Virus record (IMG/VR): IMGVR_UViG_2663762857_000030 | Coordinates: 1 to 8,473 of that record | DNA from: a virus | Taxonomy: Duplodnaviria > Heunggongvirae > Uroviricota > Caudoviricetes | Length of the DNA stretch: 8,473 nt | Direction: 5' to 3' (one strand) | Shown: positions 329 through 404 of the stretch, one piece after another | Layout of the letters: each line of letters begins with the position of its first letter | Position numbering within the stretch: position 1 is the first letter of the stretch | Made by a program: the position numbers and the translations under genes | The notes under the pieces: model-generated | What the model was told of the DNA's origin: nothing | The model's database searches: none | What the model saw: the letters and a program-made list of their open reading frames with translations, nothing else

Positions 329-404
329 TGTGATTCAGTATACACAAAAAAGAATCACAAAAAACACTTGACCTGTGATTCAGTTGAATTTAATTTAAAT
401 CACA
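329..404. promoter_or_regulatory. Divergent control region: two copies of a 31-bp dyad operator (TGTGATT-N17-AATCACA) and a candidate rightward sigma70 promoter
   Basis: TGTGATT at 329-335 and 374-380; AATCACA at 353-359 and 398-404. Both dyads have the same internal spacing and sit 45 bp apart. Candidate -35 TTGACC (368-373) and -10 TAATTT (391-396), 17-bp spacer, lie within the second dyad. Confidence 0.45.

Follow-up and report, generated by a model that had tools for sequence, protein, structure and literature searches.

Positions 329-404 of the window, the whole stretch of 8,473 nucleotides that was analysed, very probably carry the operators of a repressor/operator cassette that belongs to a Gram-negative phage-inducible chromosomal island (PICI). 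The comparisons made here point to a cis-encoded regulator, the product of the leftward gene at 1..306, which most likely represses the rightward early/replication operon and autoregulates. This protein of the YlcI/YnfO family would bind four short boxes through an N-terminal ribbon-helix-helix (RHH) domain, with residues 12 and 14 of its beta-strand reading four variable bases and R16 together with other conserved residues reading the constant TGT/CA. RNA polymerase would be occluded at both promoters, which would keep the operon off and limit the synthesis of the regulator itself.

The 8473-bp window has two perfect copies of TGTGATT-N17-AATCACA (329-359 and 374-404) and no third site even when up to two mismatches are allowed. 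The copies are 45 bp apart from start to start, and their left arm, TGTGATTCAGT, is identical over 11 nt. The mean in dinucleotide-preserving shuffles was 0.06 matches per window, and two matches were reached in 2 of 200 shuffles. The sequence-only reading had described a duplicated 31-bp dyad with equal internal spacing as the operator; the duplication and its spacing are confirmed, but the unit is better described as a 9-bp box, TGT-NNNN-CA, which is present four times in 329-404 with centres 22, 23 and 22 bp apart. Boxes H1 (329-337) and H3 (374-382) lie on the plus strand and both read TGTGATTCA, and boxes H2 (351-359, TGTGATTCT) and H4 (396-404, TGTGATTTA) lie on the minus strand. H1 and H2 are the inverted pair that makes up dyad 1 (O1, 329..359), H3 and H4 make up dyad 2 (O2, 374..404), and each of the four boxes is asymmetric in sequence. 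When one mismatch is allowed, TGTGATTCA is found six times in the window, four times inside 329-404 and twice outside, the latter being the chance level (expected 2.0). A scan of IMG/VR for the dyad pattern gave mostly single matches, which is the chance expectation for 14 specified bases in a collection that large, and double matches 45 bp apart only in PICI-like contigs.

It is extremely unlikely that the repeats are maintained by something other than protein binding, namely by the coding of a long plus-strand ORF or by a hairpin in RNA or DNA. The reading frame of the rightward Icd-like gene is indeed open and depleted of stops through the region, and each TGTGATTCAGT reads C-D-S-V in that frame (CDSV...CDSV), but a coding repeat does not explain why half of the boxes are inverted, and no family was matched by the product of the long ORF in the box stretch. 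The boxes moreover keep a constant position with respect to the -35 and -10 hexamers, and they sit upstream of the rightward start site. A hairpin or cruciform was ruled out by folding energy, as single-stranded DNA of the dyad region folds no better than shuffled sequences (z = -1.05).

The regulator gene (minus strand, 101 aa) starts with the ATG at 306, a start that PGAP calls identically in the near-identical Escherichia coli locus L001, and is preceded by a Shine-Dalgarno sequence AGGAG at 314..318 (minus strand), 7 nt before the ATG. A candidate leftward -10, TATACT, lies at 337..342 on the minus strand within the spacer of dyad 1; across operator types this hexamer is TATACT, TATATT, TATAGT or TAATGT, and a leftward -35 was not recognisable. 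The rightward promoter at 368..396 (plus strand) has the -35 TTGACC at 368-373, a 17-nt spacer and the -10 TAATTT at 391-396. A consensus promoter scanner did not call it, because its -10 matches in only 3 of 6 positions. The alignment of 13 diverged homologous regions nevertheless has invariant columns at the TTG of the rightward -35, at the TA...T of its -10 and at the TA of the leftward -10 (T341 and A342), as well as at the outer G, TG and CA bases of the boxes, and the block ATATACAC is kept while the flanking boxes vary.

H3 directly abuts the rightward -35 and H4 comes after the -10. Dyad 2 takes in the promoter spacer, the -10 and the probable start of transcription. Dyad 1 brackets the leftward -10 together with the likely start site of that promoter and begins 23 bp upstream of the regulator ATG. 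The sequence-only reading had placed one copy over the rightward promoter and the other just upstream of the regulator gene, and this holds. Its divergent control region does contain both promoters but is not simply intergenic, since it lies inside an open plus-strand ORF. The positions of the boxes suggest occlusion of both promoters.

The published model of Gram-negative PICIs relies on an activator, AlpA, and not on a repressor, and the existence of a repressor in these islands is called unclear (PMC6092414). AlpA-dependent activation is sufficient in the model island EcCICFT073 (PMC6092414). The regulator might bind the boxes but act mainly as an activator, for example of its own weak promoter, or as a factor by which one satellite excludes another, and not as the master repressor of the early operon. 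The leftward promoter without a -35 possibly needs activation, for instance from the boxes on either side of the A-tract and -35 region, and heteroimmune diversification is what competition among related satellites would select. This alternative is unlikely, since the placing of H3 and H4 around the rightward promoter (spacer, -10 and start site) is a classical occlusion geometry, and the leftward -10 is likewise bracketed by H1 and H2. Repression of both promoters remains the preferred reading.

Downstream of the rightward promoter, a transcript leader (430..490, plus strand) comprises a conserved hairpin (430-437/456-463), the heptamer CTAACCA (464-470) and a second, small hairpin (474-478/486-490) whose loop contains the Shine-Dalgarno sequence. 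CTAACCA is invariant, and the consensus fold of the leader has 16 pairs, nine of them with compensatory changes. No credible Rfam family was found in the whole window, nor in 300-720 with relaxed filters; the top score was RF00043 (R1162 antisense-like) with 17.5 bits against a threshold of 55. The leader is followed by an Icd-like (Kil-like) gene at 494..694 on the plus strand (NCBIfam NF033153, E = 5.2e-18; so annotated by PGAP in L001), which heads the rightward early/replication operon. The rightward order is Icd-like gene, small ORFs, DUF4222, D5-type primase, SSB, PerC and capsid genes. A tblastn search with the Icd-like protein in 50,697 phage records matched only one, a 16.5-kb satellite-like element.

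The sequence-only reading had made its operator depend on conservation of the dyads in homologous elements, and some 180 related loci, belonging to at least 10 genera, keep the two-dyad architecture. The loci compared were 10 from other genera, 80 from metagenomes, 80 from IMG/VR, 5 from E. coli and 8 from protein look-ups, and the co-variation set consisted of 169 parsed loci and the 8 look-ups. Their shared layout is the regulator start, about 22 nt, a box, the leftward -10, a box, an A-tract, the -35, a box, the -10 and a box. The four inner bases of the boxes vary jointly with residues 12 and 14 in the N-terminal beta-strand of the regulator. The strands KQISIRI and RQISIRI are found with TGT-GATT-CA (41 loci; E. 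coli, Yersinia and Klebsiella), QLTTVRV and QLFTVRV with TGT-GTTT-CA (E. coli, Citrobacter, Enterobacter, Xenorhabdus and Photorhabdus), QSLTARI with TGT-AAGA-CA, QMTTIRV and QMTTVRI with TGT-ATAT/ATCT-CA, QQ(I/L)NARF with TGG-(G/T)ATT-CA and RQKTARV with TGG-GAGT-CA. The x-K-N-x-R types (L179, L181, L183 and L004) have GTGTGTA-type boxes, two of them direct to the left of the -35 and two inverted to the right, and not two inverted pairs. An identical strand goes with an identical box even across genera, as for KQISIRI and QLTTVRV. There are at least seven specificity classes, but the truly independent ones are few (about 7-9), and a large share of the loci consists of near-identical copies.

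Four predictions on new loci were set after this rule had been formulated, and all four came out as predicted. In L177, a regulator with the C-terminal sequence of the window's own regulator and a QLTTVRV N-terminus is accompanied by TGTGTTTCA boxes. The substitution K11R in L180 leaves TGTGATTCA unchanged, T13F in L182, at a position predicted to face the core, leaves TGTGTTTCA unchanged, and L184 keeps the M-T type box. Within a type, identity is 0.86-1.00 in the boxes against 0.50-0.81 at other positions.

The box type follows neither the remainder of the regulator nor the neighbouring genes. Four box types are found within a single cluster of Icd-like proteins (I13), and likewise four within a single cluster of regulator C-termini (C9). 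The identical AlpA protein WP_000387403.1 adjoins QSLTARI boxes in one place and unrelated GGTGTACACC boxes in another. As the box type tracks only the regulator N-terminus and not the C-terminus, the Icd-like protein or AlpA, the N-terminus of the leftward protein is the probable reader of the boxes. The assignment of the operator to the 1..306 product by the sequence-only reading is thus supported, in that the boxes co-vary with its N-terminal strand and with nothing else nearby.

These data bear on the alternative that the boxes are read by another protein, which could be the AlpA/Vis-like or the Icd-like protein, the repressor of a helper phage, or a host protein such as CRP. The P4 protein Vis, a homologue of AlpA, acts at early and late promoters, the Icd-like families are labelled 'transcriptional repressor' in PHROGs, and TGTGA/TCACA is similar to CRP half-sites. 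The PHROG label, however, goes back to a P4 ORF that was once annotated as 'cI gene product', and box type is predicted by the N-terminal strand of the regulator and not by the cluster of the Icd-like protein or the C-terminus of the regulator. That one and the same AlpA protein is found with two unrelated box types speaks against AlpA, and a host or helper factor gives no account of at least seven box types that switch with 15 cis-encoded codons. A CRP site was rejected on its spacing, since CRP needs TGTGA-N6-TCACA and the TGTGA and TCACA arms are 21 nt apart here. Another reader is therefore very unlikely, and the 1..306 protein is retained as the candidate.

The co-varying parts are exchanged together. 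Between types, the N-terminal 24 residues of the regulator are 39-70% identical, whereas the rest of the protein is 82-91% and up to 100% identical. Of 5426 complete E. coli genomes, 654 have DNA matches to the window, and these typically break off at nt 257-262, corresponding to codon 15/16 of the regulator, and the matches on the opposite side begin at about 428. These edges indicate the exchange of a cassette of about 165 bp (263..427), which holds regulator codons 1-15, both dyads and both promoters. Swapping of codons, boxes and promoters as one unit would generate the specificities, at least seven in number, as immunity types of the satellites, and their discreteness suggests selection for heteroimmunity between related satellites. 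The exchange as a module of operators and the DNA-reading part of the repressor is also seen in heteroimmune lambdoid phages, whose genomes are otherwise similar. The exchanged unit here is, in comparison with lambdoid immunity, only about 165 bp (15 codons and the operators), and the repressor would be of the RHH and not the helix-turn-helix kind.

The 1..306 product belongs to the YlcI/YnfO family by NCBIfam NF041551 (YlcI_YnfO_N; 65.7 bits, cut-off 30, residues 9-50) and also matches phrog_6522, and the identical protein is named 'YlcI/YnfO family' by PGAP. AlphaFold2 (37-sequence alignment, single chain, pLDDT 82) predicted that residues 7-17 are extended and that helices span 19-28, 35-54 and 64-100. 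In this model G32-E33-S34 precedes helix 2 and matches the Gly-x-Ser/Thr turn of RHH proteins. The fold is probably an RHH topology of the MetJ/Arc superfamily (residues about 9-54), followed by a C-terminal helix of 37 residues that would serve oligomerisation. An hhalign comparison aligned KQISIRIPHDA with QFNLRWPREV of Arc (P = 0.005), which pairs Q12, S14 and R16 of the regulator with Q9, N11 and R13 of Arc. These three Arc residues are reportedly the ones that contact bases, and it is precisely at positions 12 and 14 that the specificity types differ. No RHH match was found in a PDB sequence-profile search with the regulator, Pfam gave no match for the N-terminal domain alone, the hhalign comparison with Mnt was insignificant, Foldseek did not establish the RHH fold, and tblastn with the regulator gave no match in the 50,697 phage records.

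Functional parallels are found among known RHH repressors. In immI of phage P22, the RHH repressors Mnt and Arc act on the divergent promoters Pant and Pmnt. As proposed for the window, a small RHH repressor is divergent from the operon that it controls, operators lie over both promoters and there is autoregulation, and Mnt, like the 1..306 protein as predicted, has an N-terminal RHH domain and a C-terminal helical oligomerisation domain. No sequence relationship between the P22 proteins and the regulator was detected beyond the RxPxE/D strand-helix motif. The half-sites in P22 are about one helical turn apart, in contrast to the four boxes here with centres 22-23 bp apart, and P22 is a phage whereas the present element is a satellite. 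NikR is an RHH tetramer with the operator GTATGA-N16-TCATAC. It resembles the present system in having short inverted half-sites about two helical turns apart, each presumably read by one RHH dimer, with a central oligomerisation domain that keeps the dimers apart, but NikR has a metal-binding ACT-like tetramerisation domain where the 1..306 protein is predicted to have a single long helix.

From the NikR-like spacing we infer that one RHH dimer would bind each box and that the C-terminal helix would probably join two dimers, giving a tetramer across the 31-bp dyad. The dimeric regulator of the sequence-only reading is consequently retained as an oligomeric binder but not as a simple dimer, a higher-order oligomer being probable. 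The asymmetry of the boxes and the direct/direct, inverted/inverted order in the K-N types make this stoichiometry model uncertain.

By its gene content and insertion site the element is to be classified as a Gram-negative PICI inserted in tqsA. The near-identical locus L001 contains an integrase gene, an AlpA-family HTH gene (PF05930, 1.9e-17), the control region, a D5-type primase, SSB and late genes, among them capsid E-like and D-like ones, in an island of about 10.8 kb between the split halves of tqsA (5636-6541 and 17503-17646), an organisation as described for Gram-negative PICIs (PMC6092414, PMC10111431). L001 has the PICI hallmarks of an integrase followed by AlpA, primase/replication genes and optional late genes, a size within 10-20 kb and a specific chromosomal insertion site. 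In the window, an N-terminal fragment of tqsA, which encodes the AI-2 transporter, lies at the very end (8327-8473, minus strand), and genes for a lambda E-like major capsid protein, a D-like decoration protein and a Nu1-like HTH protein lie at 4884-6286 and 6875-7309. Genes for portal, protease and large terminase were not found in the island, and this set fits the 'late zone' of Gram-negative PICIs. The lysogeny-like switch of the sequence-only reading is accordingly kept as a switch, but one that would control quiescence and induction of a satellite and not lysogeny of a phage. Between alpA and the 3' end of the regulator gene in L001 (8650-8685) there is a GC-rich stem with an A-run on one side and a T-run on the other (AAAAAAGCGGCC...GCCGCCTTTCT), which a terminator scanner missed owing to its long loop and which may be a bidirectional terminator.

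Gram-positive PICIs (SaPIs) have the master repressors Stl/Rpr and divergent stl-str promoters (PMC6092414). Stl is, like the regulator, a leftward repressor that faces a rightward replication/packaging operon, although this role is presumed here, and unlike the regulator Stl is larger, has a helix-turn-helix and is inactivated by helper-phage proteins.

The long plus-strand ORF (window 2..694) shares the frame of the Icd-like gene, is antisense to the whole of the regulator gene and also spans the operators. Its counterpart in L001 (8558..9694) encodes 378 aa from an ATG and begins 57 nt after alpA, and that in the O157:H7-type island L306 (1091..2035) encodes 314 aa; PGAP labels parts of the ORF as 'Icd-like pseudogene'. 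In about 130 of 160 loci, among them all types, the Icd frame is open through the operators, antisense to the regulator and for 100-750 nt beyond. The long ORF and the regulator have third codon positions in common, and the antisense frame is free of stops in 12 of 12 diverse regulator genes, with a probability of being open after synonymous resampling of 0.06-0.45 for each. In the intergenic part of about 190 nt, every type has 0-1 stops in the Icd frame, compared with 4-8 in the other two frames of the plus strand. The ORF starts upstream of the early promoter and overlaps the first gene in frame, as in nesting of the eta/kil type.

In P4, a short nested gene is expressed from a promoter that lies within eta, and translation of full-length eta, which prevents termination, takes place only from a late promoter further upstream (PMC10111431). 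The left operon of P4 (PLL - vis - PLE - eta/kil - CI RNA; PMC10111431) has the same order of an AlpA/Vis-like gene, a long ORF and an internal promoter, and in both elements a short cell-division-inhibitor-like gene nested in the same frame is followed by a primase operon. The rightward promoter of the window would be the equivalent of PLE, which is internal to eta. The immunity of P4 is RNA, whereas here the internal promoter bears candidate protein operator boxes and the repressor gene lies antisense inside the long ORF. BLASTP gave no alignment between the Icd-like protein and the P4 ORF at 8168-8584 in a comparison confined to that ORF, and tblastn with the Icd-like protein did not find P4. 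The models for C4 (RF01695) and isrK (RF01394) matched neither the window (E <= 0.1) nor its segment 300-720 (E <= 10), and gave 74.9 and 60.8 bits in P4 as a positive control. Derepression would probably come about through the helper-activated AlpA operon upstream, whose transcript, translated along the eta-like ORF, would cross the whole region antisense to the repressor gene.

RHH repressors with operators on divergent promoters are well known as a kind of system, and no published description of this regulator or of its operators was found. The YlcI/YnfO family is listed only as an accessory "prophage-associated protein" in PMC13612085. What appears to be new, as far as sequence comparison can indicate, is a function for the family, its role in Gram-negative PICIs, the swappable recognition cassette and the location inside a stop-free long ORF. 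A conserved, divergent and probably RHH-type regulator whose operators on the early promoter differ by type makes a testable candidate and would, if true, give the uncharacterised YlcI/YnfO family a function. The correspondence of residues 12 and 14 to four base pairs might serve as a natural table for RHH engineering and orthogonal sets of repressors. The E. coli K-12 gene ylcI in DLP12 (8252-8446 of the sequence compared) is divergent from nohD with a lambda-like cos site between them, and no four-box architecture is visible there, so the operator design should not be extended to the short prophage paralogues.

A wider reading is tentative. Many Gram-negative PICIs, making up a large subgroup that about 12% of complete E. 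coli genomes contain, might carry an unrecognised protein immunity system of small RHH repressors, encoded antisense inside the eta-like ORF, whose repression would be erased by readthrough from the AlpA operon and whose specificity would change by rapid swaps of 165 bp. The repressors would be of the YlcI/YnfO type or Arc-like, with their boxes on a promoter internal to the translated eta-like ORF. Helper-triggered transcription and translation of the AlpA operon, running head-on through the repressor gene and the operators, would commit the island to replication. If so, cassette swaps would create heteroimmune satellite lineages with a two-residue recognition code, and the stop-free ORF antisense through repressor gene and operators would be a compact dual-coding switch.

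PICIs of the O157:H7 type lack a YlcI/YnfO gene but have, in the position that the regulator takes elsewhere, unannotated Arc-like ORFs antisense in the same long ORF. L306 has one of 57 aa (1534-1707, minus strand, ...YQMRLPEDF...) with the palindrome GGTAATTACC twice over the promoter region, and L308 one of 64 aa (1538-1732, minus strand, ...FHMRISPEL...) with the palindrome GGTGTACACC twice over the promoter region. These Arc-like ORFs are unrelated to the regulator, and a small ORF with its own paired palindromes would be a general design of PICIs. Annotation pipelines that call the locus an "Icd-like pseudogene" overlook such small Arc-like genes. RNA and protein immunity need not be alternatives: that they are mutually exclusive was rejected on L177, a Citrobacter island which, besides its regulator and boxes, has matches to both C4 (77.5 bits) and isrK (80.9 bits) at 633-818 inside the first rightward gene. 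The regulator may thus be one among several control layers.
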